Shown here one piece after another: positions 2,658 through 21,928 of a stretch of 21,928 nt of DNA. How positions within the stretch are numbered: the first letter of the stretch is position 1; every line of letters begins with the position of its first letter. The notes below the pieces were generated by a model. It was given only the letters and a program-made list of their open reading frames with translations, made no database searches and was not told the origin of the DNA. Position numbers and translations under genes: made by a program. The DNA is from an uncultured archaeon (GTDB taxonomy: Archaea > Asgardarchaeota > Lokiarchaeia > Sigyniarchaeales > SOKP01): NCBI GenBank assembly GCA_964632315.1, contig CAZWEM010000027.1, positions 33,614 through 55,541 of the forward strand, read 5' to 3'.

Positions 2658-3956
2658 TTGAATATTGTTATAGGTATTGACGGGGGAAGTTTTAAGCATC
2701 TCAATATTGTGTTGCAAAGAGGATTAACACCTAATTTTAAGCGATTAATTGAAAATGGATTTTCTGCTAATCTTAGAGTGACCAATCCTCCAATTACTAT
2801 CCCATCGTGGCCCTGCACATTCTCAGGATTAACTCCTGAAGATCTAGGGTTCTATTATTTTACTCATCCTGATAAAGGCTTATTTAATTCCTCATATTGG
2901 AGAAATAAGTCGATTTTTTCACTAATCAACGAAAAATCTTTTATAATGAATGTCCCAGGAACATTCCCCTCTTGGAAAGTTAACGGAGAAATGATAACTG
3001 GTATGCTTTCTCCATCCATTAGTTGTTTTCCTTCAGAACTTAAACTCTCAATTCAAAAAAATTGGATTATAGATGCTGACAATGTTCCAGAATCCTTTTT
3101 TGCATTTAAGCAAAAATCCTCACTATTTCTAGAGAAAATGAAGGAAGATTTCAAATTTTTAACGTATGTAATAAGAATTCCAGATAATTTAACTCACCGT
3201 TCACATGGGGGAAAAGAAAAAACTTTAAGCTTAATCTATCAAGTATATTTAAAAATTGACAAGTTTCTTGGTAAAATTCTTGAGAATGAACAAGTTGATA
3301 ATATAATTATCGTTAGTGATCACGGTCTGAAACACTATTCTAAAGGATTTTATATCCGAAGATGGTTAGAGAAAAAAGGGATATTATTTATTAATACCCC
3401 AAAACCTAATAAACTGTTAAATGTACTACTAAAATCGTTTGACTTCATCAGGTTGTTTGTTAATAGCAGTTATTTAAAAAAATATTTTAACAAATTTTTA
3501 CATCTGAAGATTATAAAGTCTAAAATAAAGATTCCCCAACATTCTATAATGAAGATTGATCGAAATATAACACGTGTTAAAAATTTTTGTTCTAATATTG
3601 GAGGAATTATCTTGATTGGAAAGGATAAACAAAAAAATGGAATTTTATACAAGGAATTACTAAAGTCTCACTATGTAGATAACGTGATCAGGTCAACCTC
3701 TGAAGATTTTCCTGATTTCATTGTTTCTCTTAAGAAAGATTATTATTTCTGTGAGGAATCTTCCCTATATATAAAGAGAAGGAGAGATATCATTGATCAT
3801 AGCAATAAAGGACTATTTATTGCATATGGAAAAAATATTAAATCCGGGAAAGAGGATTTCGTTTCTTATCAAAATGTAGCTCCAACTTTATTAAAATTGT
3901 TAAACATCGCCAAACCAGACTACATGAAAGGAGAAGCTTTGGATATCATTAATTAG
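2658..3956 (+). CDS. AlkP-superfamily COG3379-like protein (predicted Thr nucleophile)
   Basis: GIDG metal-ligand Asp, PPITIPSW nucleophile motif, NVPGTFP, DNLTH, SDHG, C-terminal DH and VAPTLL..MKG. TTG start with GGAG upstream. No signal peptide evident. Confidence 0.88.
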   Translation: MNIVIGIDGGSFKHLNIVLQRGLTPNFKRLIENGFSANLRVTNPPITIPSWPCTFSGLTPEDLGFYYFTHPDKGLFNSSYWRNKSIFSLINEKSFIMNVPGTFPSWKVNGEMITGMLSPSISCFPSELKLSIQKNWIIDADNVPESFFAFKQKSSLFLEKMKEDFKFLTYVIRIPDNLTHRSHGGKEKTLSLIYQVYLKIDKFLGKILENEQVDNIIIVSDHGLKHYSKGFYIRRWLEKKGILFINTPKPNKLLNVLLKSFDFIRLFVNSSYLKKYFNKFLHLKIIKSKIKIPQHSIMKIDRNITRVKNFCSNIGGIILIGKDKQKNGILYKELLKSHYVDNVIRSTSEDFPDFIVSLKKDYYFCEESSLYIKRRRDIIDHSNKGLFIAYGKNIKSGKEDFVSYQNVAPTLLKLLNIAKPDYMKGEALDIIN

Positions 3957-5373: not shown

Positions 5374-6621
5374 ATGAAACCTAGAAATGTTATCTTAGGG
5401 ATCGATGGCATTCCTTATGAATTGATGAAAAATCTCTCTGATAAGGATATTATGCCGAATTTTAAAGAGTTGTGTAAAAATTACATATTTCTTCGATTAA
5501 AATCTTCAATTCCTCATATCTCATCCGTGTCTTGGAGTTCAATTATCACTGGCAAGAATCCAGGTGAGCATGGTATTTTTGGGTTCACAGACATTATCAG
5601 AAACACTTACTCACTGAGTTTTCCAAATTTCAACACCTTAAAATGCAAGCCCTTTTGGCATAATAAGCCATCTCAAAGACACATAATCTTAAACGTTCCT
5701 TCTACATATCCAGCAAAAGAACTGAACGGCATTCATATTGCAGGTTTTGTCGCCTTGGATTTAAAAAAAGCAACTTATCCCATGGAATATGTTGAATTTT
5801 TGAAAAACTTAAAATATGAAATTGATATTGATACCAGTTTAGCTCATGAACAATCTCAAGAATTATTATTTAACGAATTAAGTCGTGTGTTATCTATTAG
5901 AAAAAAAACATATCAAAGCTTATGGAATGAATTTAAATGGGATAATTTTATGGTCGTCATTACTAGTACCGACAGGTTTGGCCATTTCTTATGGAATACA
6001 TACGAGAATGAAAATCATGAAAATCATGATAGATGTTTATCTTTTTTTAGAGAAGTAGACGATTTTATCGGAGATATTTACAGTAAATTAGGTGAAAATG
6101 ATACTTTTATAATTTTATCAGATCATGGCATGGAAAGTGTTAATGTAAATTTTAACCTAAACACCTTTTTAGAACAAGAAGGATATCTAAAATTAGGTTC
6201 AGAGGGCAAAAATTACAATCGAATATTGAAAGAAACAAAAGCTTTTGTGTTAGATCCGGGTAGGGTTTACTTAAACCGAAGTAAAAGATATCCAAATGGA
6301 AGTGTTAGTGAGTCGGAAGGAAAATCAATTCTTGATGGTTTAAAGAATTCCTTGCTTGACTTGAAATATGAAGGAAAAAAGGTTATAAAGAAGATTTATG
6401 AAAAAGAAAAGATATACCATGGTCCTTATGTAAATCTTGCTCCCGATTTAGTAATTCATGAAGAATCTGGTTATCAACCAAAAGGTAATATTGGAAAGAT
6501 AAATTTATTTGAAAAGGATAATTTTAGTGGCATGCATAATGCTAATGCATTTATTCTAATAAATAAGGATATTGATATTGAATATCCTTCTGTAGAAAAT
6601 ATAATTGAGTTTATGGTTTGA
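5374..6621 (+). CDS. AlkP-superfamily COG3379-like protein (predicted Ser nucleophile)
   Basis: GIDG, SSIPHISSVSWSSIITGKNPGEHGIFGF, NVPSTYP, DRFGH, SDHG, APDLV, SGMH. Its stop overlaps the TTG of the next gene (TTGA at 6618-6621). Confidence 0.9.
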   Translation: MKPRNVILGIDGIPYELMKNLSDKDIMPNFKELCKNYIFLRLKSSIPHISSVSWSSIITGKNPGEHGIFGFTDIIRNTYSLSFPNFNTLKCKPFWHNKPSQRHIILNVPSTYPAKELNGIHIAGFVALDLKKATYPMEYVEFLKNLKYEIDIDTSLAHEQSQELLFNELSRVLSIRKKTYQSLWNEFKWDNFMVVITSTDRFGHFLWNTYENENHENHDRCLSFFREVDDFIGDIYSKLGENDTFIILSDHGMESVNVNFNLNTFLEQEGYLKLGSEGKNYNRILKETKAFVLDPGRVYLNRSKRYPNGSVSESEGKSILDGLKNSLLDLKYEGKKVIKKIYEKEKIYHGPYVNLAPDLVIHEESGYQPKGNIGKINLFEKDNFSGMHNANAFILINKDIDIEYPSVENIIEFMV

Positions 6622-8144
6622 CTTTTATGAAGAAATTACACAATGCAAATAAGACATGTTGGAATTGTCCAGCAGCAAAATTAATGGGAAATATTGACTT
6701 CAGGGCATGTGGACAAGCAGGAAAATTAAATCTAGATGCTGATGAAGATCAAGAGATCGTGATCGAGTGTAGAAGACGCCCAGAATTAGGTTACTTCGAG
6801 CCTAACATCACCTTTGAACAGTGCCCCGAATGGGAAGCAACTGATTTTGGATACATCCTTAAAAACATGAAAGTAATGATACTTGGAATTGATGGGTATC
6901 TGGGATGGACTTTAGCCCTGAAACTGGGAAAATTAGGATTTCAAGTTAGTGGTCTTGATAATTACACCCGAAGAGATTGCGTGATGGAAAAAGGAGCCCA
7001 TACAGTCATCCCAATACCTAGGATGACCGAAAGGTTAAAGGCAGCTAATGATCTCTTGGGAATAAATATTTATTTCAGAAAGATTGATCTTAATGATGAG
7101 GCAAAAGTCCGTGAGTTTGTTGATGAGGTGAAACCAGAATCAATCGTTCATTATGGAGAGATTCCAAGCGCACCCTATAGCATGGCAGATTTAAACCATG
7201 CGGTAAAAGTGCAAAATAATAATGTTTTAGCCACCTTGAAACTTTTATGGATCATGAAAGATATTGTCCCAGAATCTACCTTAATCAAATTAGGTACAAT
7301 GGGAGAATATGGAACACCATTAACCGGAAGACCTCTCTTTGAAGGGTTGTTTCCTGCAGATGCAATGATTAAATGGGACGATCGAGAGTGGAGTTTGGGA
7401 GGAGAAACGACTCCTAGGGATCCGGCAAGTTATTACCACGTGAGCAAGGTTCAAGATACCTTTAATATACTAGAGGCCTGTAAATATTGGTGGCTAAGAT
7501 CTTATGATGTCATGCAAGGCGTCATTTATGGAGTATATACTGAGGAAATTGCATCAGATAAACGTTTGAGAACTCGATTTGATATTGATGAATGGTTTGG
7601 AACAGTGATTAATCGATTTGTTTCACAAGCTGTCTCAGACATCCCATTAACAATATATGGTAAAGGAGAGCAAATTAGAGGTTTTATTGCGCTCAATGAT
7701 GCAATGCAATGCATGGTTCGTTTAATAATATCTCCTCCAGAGCCAGGTCAATATGATGTGGTAAACCAAGTTTCTGGTTTGTATAAAGTGAACGATTTAG
7801 CTGAAACGGTTGCGAGAGTTGGTATTAATAAATTCAACCTAGATGTTAAAATTCAACGATTAGAAAATCCAAGAGTGGAAGCTGACACCCATCCATTTGA
7901 AGTAGTCTCCAAAAAATTACCGAGAGTATTTGGCTTCAATCCACAAATATCCTTAGATGAAGAAATTGAACGAATGATGAGGGTGTTAAGAGAAGATGAA
8001 ATTAAATCTCGAATTGATCAAAAACGACAAACTATCATGCCTGTAACTACGTGGCAAGGCGAAAAACGGAAAATGAAGGAACTCGAGCAATATAATCCAG
8101 GAACTAAAAAAGCTGAGGGATATAATCCTATTTTTGACACGTAA
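6618..8144 (+). CDS. sqdB: UDP-sulfoquinovose synthase (SqdB/SQD1/Agl3 family) with extra Cys-rich N-terminal domain; start may be ATG 6627
   Basis: GIDGYLG, DNYTRR, HYGEIPSAPYSM, KLGTMGEYGTP, SYYHVSKVQD, QGVIYG, FGTVINRF, PLTIYGKGEQIRGF and NPRVE all match SQD1/SqdB motifs. The SDR domain begins at Met84 (6867). Confidence 0.92.
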   Translation: MTFMKKLHNANKTCWNCPAAKLMGNIDFRACGQAGKLNLDADEDQEIVIECRRRPELGYFEPNITFEQCPEWEATDFGYILKNMKVMILGIDGYLGWTLALKLGKLGFQVSGLDNYTRRDCVMEKGAHTVIPIPRMTERLKAANDLLGINIYFRKIDLNDEAKVREFVDEVKPESIVHYGEIPSAPYSMADLNHAVKVQNNNVLATLKLLWIMKDIVPESTLIKLGTMGEYGTPLTGRPLFEGLFPADAMIKWDDREWSLGGETTPRDPASYYHVSKVQDTFNILEACKYWWLRSYDVMQGVIYGVYTEEIASDKRLRTRFDIDEWFGTVINRFVSQAVSDIPLTIYGKGEQIRGFIALNDAMQCMVRLIISPPEPGQYDVVNQVSGLYKVNDLAETVARVGINKFNLDVKIQRLENPRVEADTHPFEVVSKKLPRVFGFNPQISLDEEIERMMRVLREDEIKSRIDQKRQTIMPVTTWQGEKRKMKELEQYNPGTKKAEGYNPIFDT

Positions 8145-8234
8145 TTTTCTTCAATCCCCCCAGAACCCTTAATTTGTTCTTAGATTAGAAAATAAAAAAC
8201 TCTAAAATTTAGTATCAATTAAATTTAATAACTC

Positions 8235-8546
8235 ATGGAAGTGACTGATAAAACCTTTGAAAAGGAGATCCTTCTTTCTAAGAAACCAGTTCTTATTGAA
8301 TATTGGGCTTCATGGTGTGTACCATGTCAGATGATGGATTACGTTTTAAAAGAATTAGAAGTAGATTATGGAGATAAGCTCAAAATCGCCAAACTAAATA
8401 TCGACCGAAATCGTAAAACACCAAGAAAATTCGAACTTACCGGTGTTCCGACGGTCATGACGTTTAAAGGTGGTCATGTCATTGAAACCAGAGTTGGAGC
8501 ACAATCTAAAAAGAATCTTATTCAAATGATCGAAAGGGTATTATAA
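8235..8546 (+). CDS. trxA: Thioredoxin
   Basis: 103 aa, PVLIEYWASWCVPC, GVPT cis-Pro motif, VGA. 1-nt TAATG overlap with the next gene. Confidence 0.93.
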   Translation: MEVTDKTFEKEILLSKKPVLIEYWASWCVPCQMMDYVLKELEVDYGDKLKIAKLNIDRNRKTPRKFELTGVPTVMTFKGGHVIETRVGAQSKKNLIQMIERVL

Positions 8547-9487
8547 TGATGAAAGTATTGATAACTGGTGGATGTGGATTTATCGGATCTAACTTAACAG
8601 AATTTCTATTAAATCAAACTGACTGGGAAATTAACATTTTGGATGATCTTTCTAATGGGAGTTTAGAAAATATTCAATCGCTTGAAAACTACAAAGGAAG
8701 AGTACAATTTTTTAAAGGCTCGATTTTAAATGATAAAGATATTGCTTTAGCGATTAATGAGTGTGATTATGTAATAAACCTAGCCGCTCAAACGAGTGTT
8801 TTGAATTCCATTAAGAATCCTTTAGAAGACTTGCGTCATAACGTTTTTGGATTATTACAATTACTACTGAAATCTAAAGATTCAGGTGTCAAGAAATTAA
8901 TTCAAGCATCCTCAGGAGCAGCTCTAGGAGATCAGGCAATGCCAATTCATGAATTGAAAATTCCACAACCAATTTCACCCTACGGAGCGAGTAAATTGGC
9001 CGGAGAAGGTTACTGCTCTGTATTTTCTGAAACATATGACCTTAAATGCGTGGTGTTACGATTTTCAAATGTTTATGGCCCAAGATCTCAATATAAGAGC
9101 TCAGTAATTGCAAAATTTATAAAAAAATTTCTAAATCATGAATTACTTGAGATTTATGGGGATGGCAATCAAACAAGAGATTTCATTCATGTAAGGGATA
9201 TATGCAGAGGAATCTATGAATCACTGGTTCAAGATACAGGAAAATATAATTTGTTTCAATTGGGTTCCGGAAAAGAAACAATTTTAAATGATATGCTCCA
9301 CATTTTAGTTGAAATAGCCAGAAAAAATGACATTGAAATCCCTGAAATCAAAAATGTTGATCCTAAACCAGGAGAAATCCTTCGAAACTATGCTGATATT
9401 AGTAAAGCTTCAAAAAAATTAGGTTTTTCATGTGAAATAGATTTAAAACAAGGATTGAAAGAAACTCTTAAATGGTTCATTGCTTAG
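8546..9487 (+). CDS. NAD-dependent nucleotide-sugar epimerase (UDP-glucose 4-epimerase-like extended SDR)
   Basis: GGCGFIG, DDLSNG, NLAAQTSV, SPYGASK, RFSNVYGP, GDGNQTRDFIHV. Confidence 0.88.
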   Translation: MMKVLITGGCGFIGSNLTEFLLNQTDWEINILDDLSNGSLENIQSLENYKGRVQFFKGSILNDKDIALAINECDYVINLAAQTSVLNSIKNPLEDLRHNVFGLLQLLLKSKDSGVKKLIQASSGAALGDQAMPIHELKIPQPISPYGASKLAGEGYCSVFSETYDLKCVVLRFSNVYGPRSQYKSSVIAKFIKKFLNHELLEIYGDGNQTRDFIHVRDICRGIYESLVQDTGKYNLFQLGSGKETILNDMLHILVEIARKNDIEIPEIKNVDPKPGEILRNYADISKASKKLGFSCEIDLKQGLKETLKWFIA

Positions 9488-10366
9488 ATTCTTTTTAATA
9501 GCCAAGATTAAATTTGGATATCGTTTTTGAATAAAAACTAAAATTATGTTAATTTTAAAAAAGTTAAAAAGCTTTTTACGCAAATTTAAGATACTTTTGA
9601 ATGTGATTATGAAATAATCCTTATATAAATCACCTTTTGAGAAATTAGGTAAATCAGTATTTAGTCTTCTCCAGTAAGTTTTATGTTTTGCAATATAGTG
9701 ATAGAAAAATGCTTCTGGTTGATTTTCAAATTGTGAAATTCCACTCTGATGCCTTCTATAGTAATACAAAGGCTGATCGATGAATTTGAAATCTGTAACT
9801 TCTTCTAACTTGTAAATTATATCTTTATCCACACTACGTTTCTGAGAAATTTCAAACCCAACAGTATTTTCATATATTTCCCTTCTAAATGACTTTAAAT
9901 GGAAAACTCTATGATTGAAAACAGTGGTTTTTTTAGAATCGATTGGTCCAGCGGTTTCTGAAGGTTTACAATCTTCAAGATTAGAGTCACAAATCCACAT
10001 GTTGCTATAAATAAACCCAAATCCAGAAAATTCAGAATATGCATCTGCTAAGACTTCTAAAGCTTTTTCGTGTAGTTTATCATCAGCATCAACGATACAT
10101 AATATATCTTTTGTAGCATTCATTGATGCCGTTTTTAAAGTACCCCCATAACCTAAATTTTTTTCGTGCTTTATTAGCTTAATATTTTCTCTATCAAGAT
10201 ATTTTTTAATGATCTCTAAAGAATTGTCTGATGAATTATCATCAACAATTACTAATTCCCAAAATTGATAACTTTGTTTTAGAACACTTTCTATCGCAAC
10301 TTCAATGTATTCAGAATTATTGTAATTTGCCATCAAAATTGAAAAATAAAGTTCTTTCTCATTCAT
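9443..10366 (-). CDS. GT2 family glycosyltransferase (soluble GT-A fold)
   Basis: SILMANYN, VDDNSSD, NLGYG, DADD, LYYYRRH. Confidence 0.9.
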   Translation of the reverse strand: MNEKELYFSILMANYNNSEYIEVAIESVLKQSYQFWELVIVDDNSSDNSLEIIKKYLDRENIKLIKHEKNLGYGGTLKTASMNATKDILCIVDADDKLHEKALEVLADAYSEFSGFGFIYSNMWICDSNLEDCKPSETAGPIDSKKTTVFNHRVFHLKSFRREIYENTVGFEISQKRSVDKDIIYKLEEVTDFKFIDQPLYYYRRHQSGISQFENQPEAFFYHYIAKHKTYWRRLNTDLPNFSKGDLYKDYFIITFKSILNLRKKLFNFFKINIILVFIQKRYPNLILAIKKNLSNEPFKSFFQSLF

Positions 10367-14761: not shown

Positions 14762-17700
14762 TTGGTAAGTGTTATTTTTGCTTTTATCTACTTTACCTTT
14801 TTAATTCAAAGCTATATCATTCCTAACGCTTATAATATTCCAATTGTAGTGTTTATTGGATATTCAATAATAATAGGTCTTTATTTTTTTTTCTTTATTC
14901 TCAAAGAACGTGATTTATCAAAGAGTTACCAAATCAAGTTTGTCAGTGAGGATTTGTTTAAGATTACCCTTATTATACTTATGGTAATAACATACTTCAT
15001 TCCTCCAATATCTTTCTCAGATGTTATAGTCGATTGGGGTGAAGTTGGATTTTTAAATTACATTAGAAGCATAACTTTGCTTCTCGGATGCTTATACATT
15101 CCTGGTTCAAGTCTCTATAATTTATTCCTTAGTAAAATTGACATTCCAAGCAAATTGAATGTTGAGCCATTTTTAATTAAAATAACCTTTTACCCTCTTT
15201 TGTCTCTTTCCTTAATAGGGACTTCTACTCTTATTTTTGAAAAATTAGGATTACAGAGAGATTATTTCACTTATCCTCTTTTCTCTATTATTTTAATCCT
15301 ATATTTTATAGAGTACTTTTTAAGAAAAAGATCCTCTGTTTCCACTAAGTTTAAAAAAATATTAAATTTGAATATATCAAAATCTACAATAGTTGTTCTC
15401 TTTCTCTGTCTTTCAGTTATCATTATTGGATTGGGCTTTTTTATAGTCGCCCCATATGGACTCCGAGAAGATCCACATAGAGGTATAATGTATGCTCAAC
15501 TTGTAGGTTTAAAGGATACGCCTTCATATGGTGTGTATTGTATCTTCTGGGGTTATATTTCTTTTGGTTTAAGCGAATTAAGTGGATTACCAGCTATTAA
15601 TGTCAATGCAATACTTTTTCCTTTATTATATCTCTTCATTTCAAGTCTTTATATCTTTTACAAAGCCTTAATGAATAAAAATATACATACACGAACTGCT
15701 ATTTTTGCATTACTATTGTTTGTAACTTTTTCTGAATTTTCTAATTTTATTGATAGCGAAACCGAATTAATTAATATTACTTACTTGTTTATCGATACCT
15801 TATTTATGCTCACGTTTAAAGGAATAGCGTTCTTTTCATTTTCCGTCTCAATCACATTATTTACTCTCCTTTTTAAGACACAAGAGGAAAGAGATTCTAA
15901 ATTCAATCCAAAACAAATTGATTCAATTCATTCAAAAAACGAAAGAAATGCAGAAATTATATTGATATTCGCGGGAAGCTGGTTTCTAATACAAAGTTTC
16001 TTATTATACATTTTTCCTGTTTTAATAGCTTTTATTTTCATGATAATTTATTCGATTTTTTCTAGTAAAAAGGAAAAGAACTTCAATTTTACATCTTATA
16101 GCGTTGTTAGTTTTATATTAATATTCACATTATTCGATATCCTATCGAATTTCTTCTATAGCAATACAATACAAGGGATTTTGGCAACCTTTTTTGGAAA
16201 TTTATATCCATTTACTTATTCAGATAATATTAAAACCATATTTTTTTATTCATTCTTATTGATTTTGGTAATCATATGGTTAGGTACATCAAAGCTATAT
16301 GTGAAGATTTCGAAACATCTCTTTAGAGTTTCCGAAAAAAAGAGGGATTATCGTTTCATCATTATAGTATTGATGATTATTTTTATAGGCTTTTTTATTT
16401 TAGAAATAATTTTGAACCTGATGTTCACCAAAAGAAGACTATACTTGTTTACTTATTCATTGCATTTAATATTTGTAAATCTTGGGTTTTTAGGGATTAT
16501 GGTCTTTCTTTTTATGCCATTGATTTTTAAACATGAAGAGAAGCTCTTTTCAATCCTATTTTCTTGGTTTATCATTATTTTTCTCATTTCTTCAGTATTG
16601 CTAGTTAAATGGATAGTAAGGCCTTATCCATATCTTACTATGTTTTCGGATTTTTTTATTATAGAATACTGGTTTAGTCGTTATAGCTTTTATAGTATTA
16701 TCCCACTATCTATTCTAGGGGCTATATTAATCGTAAATTTACAAAAGATTAAATTTAGAATAAAGATGTCTAAAAAAGTCAAAAATATTTTCCAATACCT
16801 CATAATTTCAACGTTAATTATTTTTTTAGTTTCAAATAATATTCAATCAGCTATAGACAAATATAATACGAAACAATTAAATGATAATGAAGCTAAGATG
16901 ATAGGATGGATTTCTGATAATATTCCCTTTAAAGAATCGATATTGGTTGATAATAGCATTTATTACACGTATGTTCGAGATTTCTTGTTCAATAAAAGAG
17001 CAAGATTAGACTTAGAAGTAGATAATATCCTAAACAATTATGAATTTCTTACAGTAATGAATGAAAAAGATCATAATTGTTCAATAATGCTATACGAAAA
17101 ATTAGGGGAAAATGTGAATGTCTTGGAATTTCAAGATAATAACAATAGCGGAAAAGTTTCGAGCTCTGTTGCTTTTGAACAATCTTACCAATCAGGGTGG
17201 ATAAGTTTTGATTATATGACTTCCAATAGCACAAAAAATTTTAATATTAATTTATATGCAGCTTTATATGCTCAAGTTGCAATTCAGTTATCTATTTCAT
17301 CGAAAGAATTACGTTATTTTAATGGAACGAATTATCAAAAAATTGCAAATATTGATAAGAATAAATGGTATTCATTCAAAATTTTTTTTGAAACATCAGA
17401 TTTAAATAACTATAATCTAACAAAATATCAATGGAAGGTTTTAATCAATGGTACTGATTATGGAGTTTATCCTTTTCTAAATAGTATTCCTAATATTTTT
17501 TTGTTTCAAATTAGTACTTCTAACAGTGACTATAATTGGTCCAATTTTCTCACTAATTTTCATTTCTCTTGGAATGTTCCAAGCATTTTTGAATATAATA
17601 TCATTAAATACCCATTGATAATAAAAGAGTTACGAAAAATGAATATCAATTATTTCATTTTATCAGAAAAAGACTCTCTAATTAAACAGAGAATAAAGGA

Positions 17701-17791
17701 AGACATTGATATTCAAAATGAATTAATCCCTCATTTTTATAATCGAAGCATTTTTCACCAAAATGGAATAACTATATATTCTACTTCATAA
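14762..17791 (+). CDS. Large polytopic membrane protein, putative GT-C-like glycosyltransferase with extracellular C-terminal domain
   Basis: Many TM segments over aa 1-~690, acidic ED in an external loop (REDPH), WFSRY near the last TMs. The soluble tail has 'AKMIGWISDNIP..SILVD ... LRKMNINYFIL', resembling GT-C/STT3-like C-terminal domains. No WWDYG motif. Confidence 0.6.
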   Translation: MVSVIFAFIYFTFLIQSYIIPNAYNIPIVVFIGYSIIIGLYFFFFILKERDLSKSYQIKFVSEDLFKITLIILMVITYFIPPISFSDVIVDWGEVGFLNYIRSITLLLGCLYIPGSSLYNLFLSKIDIPSKLNVEPFLIKITFYPLLSLSLIGTSTLIFEKLGLQRDYFTYPLFSIILILYFIEYFLRKRSSVSTKFKKILNLNISKSTIVVLFLCLSVIIIGLGFFIVAPYGLREDPHRGIMYAQLVGLKDTPSYGVYCIFWGYISFGLSELSGLPAINVNAILFPLLYLFISSLYIFYKALMNKNIHTRTAIFALLLFVTFSEFSNFIDSETELINITYLFIDTLFMLTFKGIAFFSFSVSITLFTLLFKTQEERDSKFNPKQIDSIHSKNERNAEIILIFAGSWFLIQSFLLYIFPVLIAFIFMIIYSIFSSKKEKNFNFTSYSVVSFILIFTLFDILSNFFYSNTIQGILATFFGNLYPFTYSDNIKTIFFYSFLLILVIIWLGTSKLYVKISKHLFRVSEKKRDYRFIIIVLMIIFIGFFILEIILNLMFTKRRLYLFTYSLHLIFVNLGFLGIMVFLFMPLIFKHEEKLFSILFSWFIIIFLISSVLLVKWIVRPYPYLTMFSDFFIIEYWFSRYSFYSIIPLSILGAILIVNLQKIKFRIKMSKKVKNIFQYLIISTLIIFLVSNNIQSAIDKYNTKQLNDNEAKMIGWISDNIPFKESILVDNSIYYTYVRDFLFNKRARLDLEVDNILNNYEFLTVMNEKDHNCSIMLYEKLGENVNVLEFQDNNNSGKVSSSVAFEQSYQSGWISFDYMTSNSTKNFNINLYAALYAQVAIQLSISSKELRYFNGTNYQKIANIDKNKWYSFKIFFETSDLNNYNLTKYQWKVLINGTDYGVYPFLNSIPNIFLFQISTSNSDYNWSNFLTNFHFSWNVPSIFEYNIIKYPLIIKELRKMNINYFILSEKDSLIKQRIKEDIDIQNELIPHFYNRSIFHQNGITIYSTS

Positions 17792-19256: not shown

Positions 19257-20405
19257 ATGATTCAACCACATGGTGGAAGATTAGTCAATAAAGAATTACC
19301 TAAAATGGAAAAAGAAAGGATTTTAGGTGAATCAGATGAGTTTTATAAAAAAACTGTTAATCCCCAGACGTTAAAGGTAATAAAGAACATTGCTTATGGG
19401 GTTTTTAGCCCATTAGAAGGATTCATGAATGAAAATGATTTTCATTACGTCCTTGACGAAATGTATCTTCAAAATAATTTAGCGTGGCCAATACCGATTG
19501 TACTTGATGCTGATAGAGAAGAAACCCAACAATATCAAGTGGATGATCGGATCATTTTAACCAATCAATCTGGAATTCCCCTTGCTATCATGTCAATAGA
19601 GGATATATATAGTTATGAAAAGCAAGAATTCGCAGAAAAAGTATATGGAACGTTAGATCAGAATCATCCTGGAGTACAAAGTGTTTACGATCTTAAAGAA
19701 ATACTAATTGGGGGAGAAATATTTTTATTAAATGAACCTAAAGCTGTTTTTCCAAGTTTAGATCTAAAGCCTTTAGAAACACGAGTGCTATTCAAACAAA
19801 AAAAATGGGATAAAGTGGTCGCATTTCAAACTCGGAATCCACCTCATTTAGGACATGAATACGTCCAAAAAGCTGGCCTTACTTATGTCGATGGTTTATT
19901 CATTAACCCTGTAATCGGAAAGAAAAAAAGCGGGGATTTCAAGGATGAAGTTATAATAGAATCATATCAAGCATTAATTAAAGAATATTATCCTCAAGAT
20001 AGGGTAGTATTAAGCACTTTTGAAACAGAAATGCGATATGCTGGACCAAAGGAAGCAATATTTCATGCAATAGCTCGAAAAAATTTTGGATGTGATCATA
20101 TCATTATCGGTCGAGATCACGCCGGAGTAGGAAATTATTATGGACCATATGATGCGCATTACATCTTTGATAAATTTCCTGACCTTGGAATTGAGCCAAT
20201 TAAATTTCGATCTTTTTCAAAATGTAGCAAGTGTAACGCGGTTGTTAATGATAAAATTTGCCCACACCCACCTGAAATGCAAAACTATTTTGCTGGGAGG
20301 GATATTCGAGCCGCTCTTAGTGCAGGAAAACCACCCGACACAGAAGTAATGCGTCCTGAAGTAGCAGAAGTCATTTTAAAGTATAAAAATCCTTTTGTTG
20401 ATTAA
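19257..20405 (+). CDS. sat: Sulfate adenylyltransferase (ATP sulfurylase)
   Basis: PHGG, FSPLEGFM, WPIPI, FQTRNPPHLGH, MRYAGPKEA, GRDHAG, CxxC...CPH zinc site. Confidence 0.97.
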   Translation: MIQPHGGRLVNKELPKMEKERILGESDEFYKKTVNPQTLKVIKNIAYGVFSPLEGFMNENDFHYVLDEMYLQNNLAWPIPIVLDADREETQQYQVDDRIILTNQSGIPLAIMSIEDIYSYEKQEFAEKVYGTLDQNHPGVQSVYDLKEILIGGEIFLLNEPKAVFPSLDLKPLETRVLFKQKKWDKVVAFQTRNPPHLGHEYVQKAGLTYVDGLFINPVIGKKKSGDFKDEVIIESYQALIKEYYPQDRVVLSTFETEMRYAGPKEAIFHAIARKNFGCDHIIIGRDHAGVGNYYGPYDAHYIFDKFPDLGIEPIKFRSFSKCSKCNAVVNDKICPHPPEMQNYFAGRDIRAALSAGKPPDTEVMRPEVAEVILKYKNPFVD

Positions 20406-20434: not shown

Positions 20435-21823
20435 TTGAGTAATAATAAAAAAGTCTTACTTATTGGGTTAGATTGTGCTACACCACGCACCCTTTTTCAA
20501 GATTTCATAGAAGAATGTCCAAATATAAAAAAGTTGATGGAAAACGGTGTTCATGGAAAACTAAGAAGTAGTGATCCTCCCATTACTGTTCCCGCTTGGA
20601 TGGTAATGGCAACAGGCAAAAAACCAGGCACGTTAGGAGTATATGGATTTCGCCATAGAAAAGGTAATTCTTATAATGATTTTTGGGTGGCTAATTCTCA
20701 GACAATTAAAGAAGAAAAAGTCTGGGACATTATTAGCAAGGAGGGTTTGAAATCAATTCTTTTAGGAATTCCTCCGACTTTTCCGCCTCAACCGATAAAT
20801 GGAAATTTAATTACAGGATTTATTACTCCCGATGCACGATCAAATTTCACCTATCCTCCAGAATTGAAGGAGGAGATTATGAATAACGTGACGGATGATT
20901 ACACTTTCGATGTTTTATTCAGAACCGAAAAGAAAGAAGATTTACTCGTAAATCTATATAAGATGACTAAATTACATTTTGCTACCGTTAAATATTTAAT
21001 ACAGAATAAGGAATGGAATTATTGTCAATTTGTTATCATTGGTTTGGACAGAATACATCATGGTTTTTGGAAATATTATGATAAATTTCACCATAAACAT
21101 GAACCAGGAAACATGTTCGAAAGTGTGATTAAAAATTTTTATAAATTTCTTGATAAGCAAATTGGTGAACTTTTAGAACTAATTGATGATAACACTACAG
21201 TCATAATCGCTTCTGATCACGGTGCTAAGGCAATGAAGGGATGTTTATGCGTGAATATGGCTTTACAAGAATTAGGTTTACTTAAATTCAAAGAAAAAGC
21301 TAAATCAGGAACTCGTTTAGAAGATGCTAAAATTGATTGGAATAAAACCTATGCTTGGGGGTGGGGGGGATATTATGCTCGCATCTTTCTCAACTTGAAA
21401 GGTCGTGAGGATCTTGGAATAATCGAACCAGAAGAATATGAATCATGGAGATCTAAAGTACAAGAGTTATTGAAAAGCGTTCCTGATGATAAGGGAAAGC
21501 CAATGAACACAATCATTCATAAACCAGAAGATTTGTTCCAAAATGTTCGGGGTGATGCACCTGATTTGATGGTTTATTTTGATGATTTGAATTGGAGGTC
21601 GGCGGGTACAGTTGGATATAAATCAATGTATTTAGATGAAAATGATACTGGTCCAGATGATGCTGTTCACGATTATCATGGGATTTTTATCATATCAGAT
21701 CCGAAAAAGAAGATAGGTAAGAATCTTGGGACTAAGAATATATTAGATATCGCCCCAACCATTTTGAATATTTTTGGAGTCGAAATTCCCGCCGATATGG
21801 AAGGTAAATTAATAGAATTTTGA
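20435..21823 (+). CDS. AlkP-superfamily COG3379-like protein between sat and cysC (predicted Thr nucleophile)
   Basis: GLDC, SSDPPITVPAW..MATG, YGFRHR, DRIHHGFW, SDHG, WGWGGYYARIF, ENDTGPDDAVH, DIAPTIL..MEG. TTG start with GAGG upstream. Confidence 0.9.
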   Translation: MSNNKKVLLIGLDCATPRTLFQDFIEECPNIKKLMENGVHGKLRSSDPPITVPAWMVMATGKKPGTLGVYGFRHRKGNSYNDFWVANSQTIKEEKVWDIISKEGLKSILLGIPPTFPPQPINGNLITGFITPDARSNFTYPPELKEEIMNNVTDDYTFDVLFRTEKKEDLLVNLYKMTKLHFATVKYLIQNKEWNYCQFVIIGLDRIHHGFWKYYDKFHHKHEPGNMFESVIKNFYKFLDKQIGELLELIDDNTTVIIASDHGAKAMKGCLCVNMALQELGLLKFKEKAKSGTRLEDAKIDWNKTYAWGWGGYYARIFLNLKGREDLGIIEPEEYESWRSKVQELLKSVPDDKGKPMNTIIHKPEDLFQNVRGDAPDLMVYFDDLNWRSAGTVGYKSMYLDENDTGPDDAVHDYHGIFIISDPKKKIGKNLGTKNILDIAPTILNIFGVEIPADMEGKLIEF

Positions 21824-21856: not shown

Positions 21857-21928
21857 ATGGAGCATAAAGGATTTACATTATGGTTTACTGGATTAGCTTG
21901 TTCTGGTAAAACAGTATTAGCTAATGCT
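21857..21928 (+). CDS. cysC: Adenylyl-sulfate (APS) kinase, N-terminal 24 aa; runs off the right edge
   Basis: Not in the ORF track. Translation MEHKGFTLWFTGLACSGKTVLANA matches the CysC N-terminal WxTGLxxSGKT P-loop and lies downstream of sat. Confidence 0.88.
   Translation, partial: MEHKGFTLWFTGLACSGKTVLANA

Follow-up and report, generated by a model that had tools for sequence, protein, structure and literature searches.

A conserved AlkP–synthase–thioredoxin cassette as a candidate self-supplied route to sulfo-sugars in uncultured archaea and bacteria

UDP-sulfoquinovose synthases convert UDP-glucose to a 4-keto-5,6-ene intermediate, to which sulfite is then added (PMC4388408). One of them, SQD1, exists as a complex when purified, and the mechanism by which sulfite is transferred in vivo is still unknown (PMC4388408). 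Here we describe a locus in which a synthase of this type is accompanied by two fixed partner genes. The locus lies in a 21,928-nucleotide (nt) stretch of contig CAZWEM010000027.1 from an uncultured Asgard archaeon (hereafter the window), a low-GC (~30%) glycan-biosynthesis island; the nearest homologues are found in Promethearchaeota, Hermodarchaeota and Hodarchaeota. It encodes, in order, a protein of the alkaline phosphatase (AlkP) superfamily (AlkP2), a long-form synthase of the SQD1/SqdB type and a thioredoxin (Trx). No published description of this cassette, with the N-terminal domain of its synthase, its two fixed partners and its genomic setting, was found in the literature. The explanation that we favor, at about even odds, is that AlkP2, the long-form SqdB and Trx work as a single functional unit whose product is UDP-sulfoquinovose, or a 6-sulfo sugar nucleotide very close to it, destined for a surface glycan, and which obtains its own sulfite from activated sulfate.

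The long-form synthase was found in 328 species in a scan that used one genome per species, and the synteny counts given here refer to the best 80 loci, from 80 species. The trx gene is located directly downstream of the synthase gene, on the same strand, in all 76 testable loci, the remaining four ending at a contig end. An AlkP2 orthologue is found directly upstream in 65 of the 80 loci. Five loci with enough flanking sequence lack it, and four of those genomes encode an orthologue elsewhere (E ~1e-190), in one case two genes away from a gene for a CysD-type ATP sulfurylase. Among 201 Asgard genomes the long synthase is present in six, and AlkP2 orthologues (at least 625 bits) are present in exactly the same six, always adjacent to it; the next-best AlkP match in this sample scores 386 bits. 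The AlkP–sqdB–trx triplet, whose conservation a first-pass annotation of this DNA had proposed as a check on its own reading, is thus widely retained, and a gene order that recurs in 80 species argues for an arrangement beyond chance.

The hosts of the best 80 loci are phylogenetically diverse. They include, on the archaeal side, Asgard archaea, Thermoplasmatota, DPANN lineages, Bathyarchaeia, Altiarchaeales, Hydrothermarchaeales and Theionarchaea, and, on the bacterial side, Armatimonadota, Chloroflexota, Planctomycetota, Saccharibacteria, Fibrobacterota, Acetothermia and others. Archaeal and bacterial copies of the cassette are ~70% identical, and none of 17 other genomes from the window's own genus contains it. 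Given this identity and this patchy occurrence, the cassette is a mobile accessory unit, and its patchiness marks it as a feature of variable surface-glycan islands.

The synthase consists of an 83-residue N-terminal domain (N-domain) followed by a short-chain dehydrogenase/reductase (SDR) domain with a Rossmann fold. Residues 84–482 match Arabidopsis SQD1 (PDB 1qrr/1i24) at E 4e-79 in a phmmer search, and 1qrr is also the top PDB match returned by Foldseek for the AlphaFold model of the full-length protein (TM score 0.82, target-normalised; 37% identity). The active site is intact. The GTMGEYG and YHVSK motifs are conserved, T227, Y273, H274 and K277 correspond to Thr145, Tyr182, His183 and Lys186 of SQD1, and these four residues, together with the NAD motif G90-x-D-G-Y-x-G-W, are invariant in 40 homologues. 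The roles of the corresponding catalytic residues have been described for SQD1 (PMC4388408). Against the equivalog model NF041015, which is built on the Sulfolobus Agl3 type, the synthase scores 417.2 bits, under the cut-off of 575. Judged by its sequence, the catalytic domain is of the SQD1/SqdB/Agl3 kind.

In an alignment of 40 archaeal and bacterial homologues, the five cysteines of the N-domain (C14, C17, C31, C51 and C69) are all invariant, as are N9, T13, W15, N16, P18, D27, F28, G32, Q33, R53, R54, P62, F66 and W72, and the CWNC motif is present in 80 of 80 synthase orthologues. When the N-domain profile was searched against 1.8 billion representative proteins, matches were confined to the synthase family and its fragments. 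Neither this profile search nor an Atlas feature search, which returned only sub-threshold, unnamed clusters, detected any resemblance of the N-domain to rhodanese or another family. The predicted local distance difference test (pLDDT) score of the N-domain is above 90 in the full-length model and 55 when the domain is folded alone. Because it is modelled with confidence only as part of the full-length protein, the prediction suggests that the N-domain packs against the catalytic domain. Synthases of 845–848 amino acids (aa) (P0115 and P0089) were considered as possible fusions with a partner protein and rejected, since their additional sequence is a probable intein of the LAGLIDADG type that interrupts the catalytic domain.

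AlkP2 scores 134.9 bits against PF01663, for which the gathering threshold is 23. Residues D11, S50, D200, H204, D250, H251 and H388, which correspond to the metal ligands and the Ser nucleophile, are invariant in 34 orthologues. The closest solved structures are those of ENPP1, phosphonoacetate hydrolase and nucleotide pyrophosphatase/phosphodiesterase (NPP), to which AlkP2 shows a local match only (E ~1e-6). No longer AlkP2 fusions were found, which is weak evidence in itself. A structure prediction for the AlkP2–synthase complex scored 0.55, in comparison to 0.00 for the best control, with at least 86% contact agreement between runs and a partner pLDDT of at least 90. The mark set for such predictions was reached by 58 of 80 solved complexes and by 2 of 110 mismatched pairs, and at scores of 0.60 or below 7 of the 80 solved complexes passed, along with both of the passing mismatches. 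The predicted complex lends weak support to a partnership between AlkP2 and the synthase.

The third member of the cassette is a thioredoxin of the TIGR01068 type (101.3 bits, cut-off 96.8; PF00085, 90.4 bits). Cassette thioredoxins have the active-site motif WCPPC, WCTAC or WC[VLI]PC, and none has the canonical WCGPC. Since the window's genome encodes other thioredoxins as well, the cassette copy is an extra, dedicated one.

The genomic setting of the cassette raises the question of where its sulfite comes from. The first-pass annotation had pointed to the absence of CysH from the window. This absence extends to the whole genome (99.5% complete, 8.6% contamination), in which we found no PF01507 match, and hence no cysH either linked or unlinked to the cassette, no NIR_SIR sulfite reductase and no AprA. 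The same pattern is seen across the cassette genomes, of which 50 or 51 were covered (the denominator is given with each enzyme). CysH is present above its curated cut-off in 2/51 cassette genomes, an AprA-like gene in 1/50 and a NIR_SIR sulfite reductase in 4/51, in keeping with the anticorrelation with cysH and aprAB that had been put forward as a test. A recognisable APS/PAPS reductase (acting on adenosine 5′-phosphosulfate or 3′-phosphoadenosine 5′-phosphosulfate) is therefore encoded in just 3/51 cassette genomes (two with CysH, one with the AprA-like gene).

Sulfate activation is, by contrast, common in these genomes. Sat is found in 38/50 of them and an ATP sulfurylase of the CysD type (NF003587) in 9 of the 12 that lack Sat, so that an enzyme of one type or the other is encoded in ~47/50; none was found in genomes G021, G031 and G035, the last of which contains Sat fragments. 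A strong match to APS kinase is present in ~39/50 cassette genomes, usually 1–2 kb from Sat. The genomes without Sat are mostly 0.7–1.2-Mb genomes of DPANN archaea or of the bacterial candidate phyla radiation (CPR), and in them the CysD-type gene usually follows right after the cassette. One Thermoplasmata locus (L013) has the genes in the order AlkP2-SqdB-Trx-GT2-Sat-DHH phosphoesterase-CysC, all in one direction, where GT2 is a family 2 glycosyltransferase. Cassette organisms, then, activate sulfate without assimilating it and have no known reductase, yet they keep a synthase of the sulfite-dependent type.

In the window itself, Sat (NF003166, 487 bits, cut-off 387; PF01747, 282 bits) is located 11 kb downstream of the cassette. 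No other enzyme of sulfate activation was found in the genome, and APS probably comes from Sat. No canonical APS kinase or cysC gene was found anywhere in the assembly. The contig (G000:C27) ends at window position 21928, just past AlkP3, the third PF01663 paralogue in the window, which is encoded beside sat, and close relatives have cysC at this place; the missing gene therefore probably sits in the assembly gap. Sat was also considered as a cassette-specific partner, a candidate that was rejected because Sat is present in 97/201 Asgard genomes and the cassette in only 6/201.

The PF01507 genes of 263–283 aa that adjoin DPANN cassettes could be mistaken for cysH. This assignment was rejected, as they score 341–366 bits with NF003587, the CysD type, and fall far under the cut-offs of the CysH models. 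CysD-type genes adjoin the cassette or AlkP2 at L019:12112-12903, L040:8858-9691, L044:12171-12968, L033:12887-13690, L046:12571-13398 and L088:7643-8479, and no Sat was found in the genomes of these loci except that of L088. The encoded proteins end in ...LGYM like CysD and lack ECGLH, and they contain a Cys-Cys pair and a GCxxC motif. We take these cysteines to be reminiscent of the [4Fe-4S] ligands of APS reductases and presumably absent from E. coli CysD. That the DPANN genes are of the CysD type makes the link between the cassette and APS firmer.

The retention of Trx offers a clue to how the parts might work together. The SQD1 reaction with sulfite involves no net redox change and has no role for a two-electron thiol donor. 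The reduction of APS or PAPS does need such a donor, and in CysH it proceeds through an S-sulfocysteine intermediate that is resolved by thioredoxin. The universal retention of Trx next to a redox-neutral synthase thus points to a reductive step, and since the pathway contains no reductive step other than that from the sulfate level to the sulfite level, it points to the reduction of APS or PAPS. In the minimal DPANN set, AlkP2-SqdB-Trx-(epimerase)-CysD, AlkP2 is the sole remaining candidate for an enzyme that binds a nucleotide and cleaves a phospho or sulfo ester or anhydride.

The scheme that we propose would begin with the formation of APS by Sat in this window, or by CysD in other lineages, and of PAPS by CysC where it is present. 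AlkP2 would break the sulfate–phosphate bond of APS or PAPS and hand the sulfo group, directly or via a sulfo-Ser50 intermediate, to a CWNC thiol in the N-domain. A second thiol would expel sulfite beside the SDR active site, and the dedicated thioredoxin would re-reduce the resulting disulfide. AlkP2, the five-Cys domain and the dedicated Trx would then amount to a third kind of APS/PAPS reductase, built on the AlkP fold, unrelated to CysH or AprAB and handing its sulfite directly to the sulfo-sugar synthase. We offer this stronger claim tentatively, as a possibility that falls somewhat short of an even chance. It had been suggested in the first-pass annotation that the AlkP protein moves the sulfo group to a Cys of the synthase extension, from which Trx releases sulfite, and this interpretation is partly supported by our results, which showed neither a poorly conserved triplet nor a linked cysH, either of which would have spoken against it; we infer the sulfur donor, the order of the steps and the residue that carries the sulfo group.

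Several observations weigh against this scheme, and some of them favor a different explanation, which we consider unlikely. In this alternative, the synthase takes up sulfite that is free in its surroundings or is made by an enzyme that escaped recognition, the N-domain with its five Cys serves as a structural module for Zn or Fe-S or as a redox switch under the control of Trx, and AlkP2 assists as a hydrolase, drawing the pathway onward by removing pyrophosphate (PPi), 3′-phosphoadenosine 5′-phosphate (PAP), AMP or a nucleotide by-product. We know of no AlkP-superfamily enzyme that transfers a sulfo group to a thiol, and Haloferax Agl7, considered as a precedent for sulfation of the AlkP type, was dropped, the annotation being absent from the main text of the paper. 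AlkP2 has a full metal site of the hydrolase type and contains no Cys that is conserved in its 34 orthologues. Four of the five N-domain cysteines may do no more than coordinate Zn or an Fe-S cluster, and Cys-rich domains with one CxxC are often metal-binding.

The behavior of AlkP3 (PF01663, 162.8 bits) points in the same direction. Many Asgard genomes without the cassette have Sat and AlkP3 side by side. The two form a single 859-aa protein, followed by cysC, in an Anaerolineae genome (L090:4828-8038), and in Thermoplasmata a DHH phosphoesterase replaces AlkP3 between sat and cysC (L013:7664-10441). AlkP3 may hydrolyse PPi or PAP, or it may be a user of APS. Because it neighbors or is fused with Sat and shares its slot with a DHH phosphoesterase, the pattern fits a helper hydrolase acting on PPi or PAP, and AlkP2 might be a helper too. 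The wide distribution of Sat among Asgard genomes noted above is a further point against the proposed scheme, as is the presence in ~10 cassette genomes of PF01507 proteins of 490–680 aa, whose function is unassigned and which could be reductases. Furthermore, the complete Thermoplasmatales chromosome G035 (L059) contains the synthase and Trx together with Sat fragments only, and no AlkP2; either the parts proposed to supply sulfite were lost together in this genome, or its version of the system runs on free sulfite. Finally, the incompleteness of metagenome-assembled genomes weakens every call of absence.

On the other side, a helper in sulfate activation would be expected to accompany Sat or CysD, whereas AlkP2 invariably accompanies the synthase. 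AlkP2 is also retained in genomes without an APS kinase, such as those of DPANN archaea that lack CysC and make no PAP. A Trx with a purely regulatory function would hardly be kept in 76/76 loci across phyla, and a supply of free sulfite leaves its source unexplained in 48/51 genomes.

Reduction of activated sulfate by the cassette can also be set against a different sulfur donor. If the sulfur came from thiosulfate, or from some other compound with reduced or mixed-valence sulfur, a Cys of the N-domain could take up sulfane sulfur in the manner of a rhodanese, sulfite would be freed at the active site, Trx would reduce the persulfide and AlkP2 would have an unrelated role. This would account for the Cys domain and for Trx without new AlkP chemistry. 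The hosts are, from the titles of their records, mostly sediment or subsurface anaerobes in whose habitats thiosulfate is available, and the few cassette genomes in which no ATP sulfurylase was found are in line with it. However, we consider this donor improbable, as it accounts neither for the strict partnership with AlkP2 nor for the recurring genetic linkage with Sat, CysD and CysC, and the N-domain lacks detectable rhodanese similarity. Similarly improbable, finally, is a role for AlkP2 after the synthase, in which it cleaves UDP-sulfoquinovose or transfers sulfoquinovose-1-phosphate, or a product that is another 6-substituted sugar such as a 6-thio sugar: the nearest solved relatives of AlkP2 are indeed nucleotide pyrophosphatases/phosphodiesterases, the synthase does fall under the NF041015 cut-off and thiol proteins would suit persulfide delivery, but all SQD1 active-site residues are kept, including His183 (H274 here), the linkage to sulfate-activation genes favors a sulfo over a thio product, and a hydrolase acting downstream would leave the missing sulfite source unexplained.

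The features of the locus are listed in Table 1. The first-pass annotation described four co-oriented genes with overlaps at both close junctions. The genes, their strand and both junction sequences stand: the AlkP2/synthase junction reads ...ATGGTTTGA, with TTGA at 6618-6621, and the trx/epimerase junction has TAATG at 8544-8548. The overlap of AlkP2 with the synthase probably does not, for homologues of 505 aa that are up to 97% identical start at the position of ATG 6627. From this alignment the real start of the synthase is probably ATG 6627, 5 nt past the AlkP2 stop, rather than the overlapping TTG, and the two genes are thus tightly spaced without an overlap being required. The synthase and trx are separated by an AT-rich gap of 90 nt.

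Table 1. Coordinates of the cassette and of the associated sulfate-activation genes in the window.
Feature	Position	Strand	Family or remark
AlkP2, AlkP-superfamily binuclear metalloenzyme, COG3379-like, cytosolic, Ser nucleophile	5374..6621	+	PF01663; first cassette gene
Long-form synthase open reading frame, SQD1-like SDR	6618-8144	+	
Five-Cys N-terminal domain of the synthase (C14-W-N-C17, C31, C51, C69; ECRRR)	6618..6866	+	likely start ATG 6627
SQD1/SqdB/Agl3-type SDR catalytic domain (predicted UDP-sulfoquinovose synthase)	6867..8144	+	
Thioredoxin, WCVPC	8235..8546	+	TIGR01068
Epimerase-like SDR, NAD-dependent sugar-nucleotide type, optional accessory	8546..9487	+	PF01370
Sat, ATP sulfurylase	19257..20405	+	NF003166, PF01747
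AlkP3, PF01663 paralogue beside sat	20435..21823	+	contig end at 21928

The epimerase-like SDR scores 175 bits against PF01370 and lies under the cut-offs for GalE (TIGR01179, 161.9 bits vs 262.3) and for dTDP-glucose dehydratase (184 bits); on these profile matches its product is best described as a generic epimerase/dehydratase SDR. A similar gene is found directly after trx in roughly a quarter of related loci. A small GT2 of ~200 aa is often located directly 3′ of trx (L013:6730-7341 and 30 other loci) and is a candidate for the transferase that places the sulfo-sugar on a lipid carrier. The window also has a GT2 gene, encoding 307 aa and convergent with the cassette (9443-10366). A 1009-aa open reading frame inside the glycan island (14762-17791) has no Pfam or NCBIfam match.

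At least 10 PF01663 paralogues are encoded in the window's genome. Four of these lie in or beside the glycan island, namely AlkP2, AlkP3, one at window positions 2658-3956 and one just upstream of the window (G000:C27:33190-33453). This suggests that expansion of the PF01663 family is linked to modification of the surface glycan.

If the proposed scheme is true, organisms without a sulfur-assimilation pathway, DPANN archaea and Patescibacteria included, could make C–S bonded sulfonates from sulfate, and there may be a route from activated sulfate to sulfite that involves neither CysH nor Apr. The cassette would be a compact candidate answer, in a large group of uncultured anaerobes, to the question of how synthases of the SQD1/SqdB/Agl3 type are supplied with sulfur in vivo. 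It also leads to the prediction of surface sugars of the sulfoquinovose type on cells of Asgard archaea, Thermoplasmatota, DPANN, Chloroflexota, Armatimonadota and Patescibacteria, which would mean that sulfoquinovose in anoxic sulfur cycling has more sources than are now known.

The cassette synthase shares with SQD1 (Arabidopsis), SqdB (cyanobacteria and Rhodobacter) and Agl3 (Sulfolobus acidocaldarius) the SDR fold, the GxDGYxGW NAD motif and the catalytic Thr, Tyr, Lys and His, and the same chemistry is expected of it. It differs from them in several respects. It alone has the invariant 83-aa five-Cys N-domain, it is flanked by AlkP2 (65/80 loci) and by trx (76/76 testable loci), and it is found in genomes that mostly lack assimilatory sulfate reduction (CysH 2/51, NIR_SIR 4/51). 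AlkP2, in turn, resembles NPP/ENPP and phosphonoacetate hydrolase (PF01663) in the positions of its binuclear metal ligands and of its Ser/Thr nucleophile. In contrast to these relatives, it is cytosolic, uses Ser in place of Thr as its nucleophile and is a dedicated member of a sulfo-sugar operon, and the sequence match is very weak. Three residues past the nucleophile, AlkP2 has Ser53 at what we take, from its sequence, to be the position of an Asn in NPP.

The likeness to APS/PAPS reductases of the CysH type lies in the proposed net reaction, in which a protein Cys would take the sulfo group and thioredoxin would free sulfite. It would be a functional analogy and not family membership, as the PF01507 PP-loop fold and a C-terminal ECGLH are both missing from the cassette proteins, and the proposed catalyst is a metalloenzyme of the AlkP fold working with a separate Cys domain. 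A parallel for the delivery of sulfur by a partner protein may exist in native spinach SQD1, which is reportedly found in a complex with ferredoxin-dependent glutamate synthase. There, as proposed for the cassette, the synthase would draw its sulfur from a partner bound to it instead of using free sulfite, whereas the partners are different and the spinach complex involves no reduction step.

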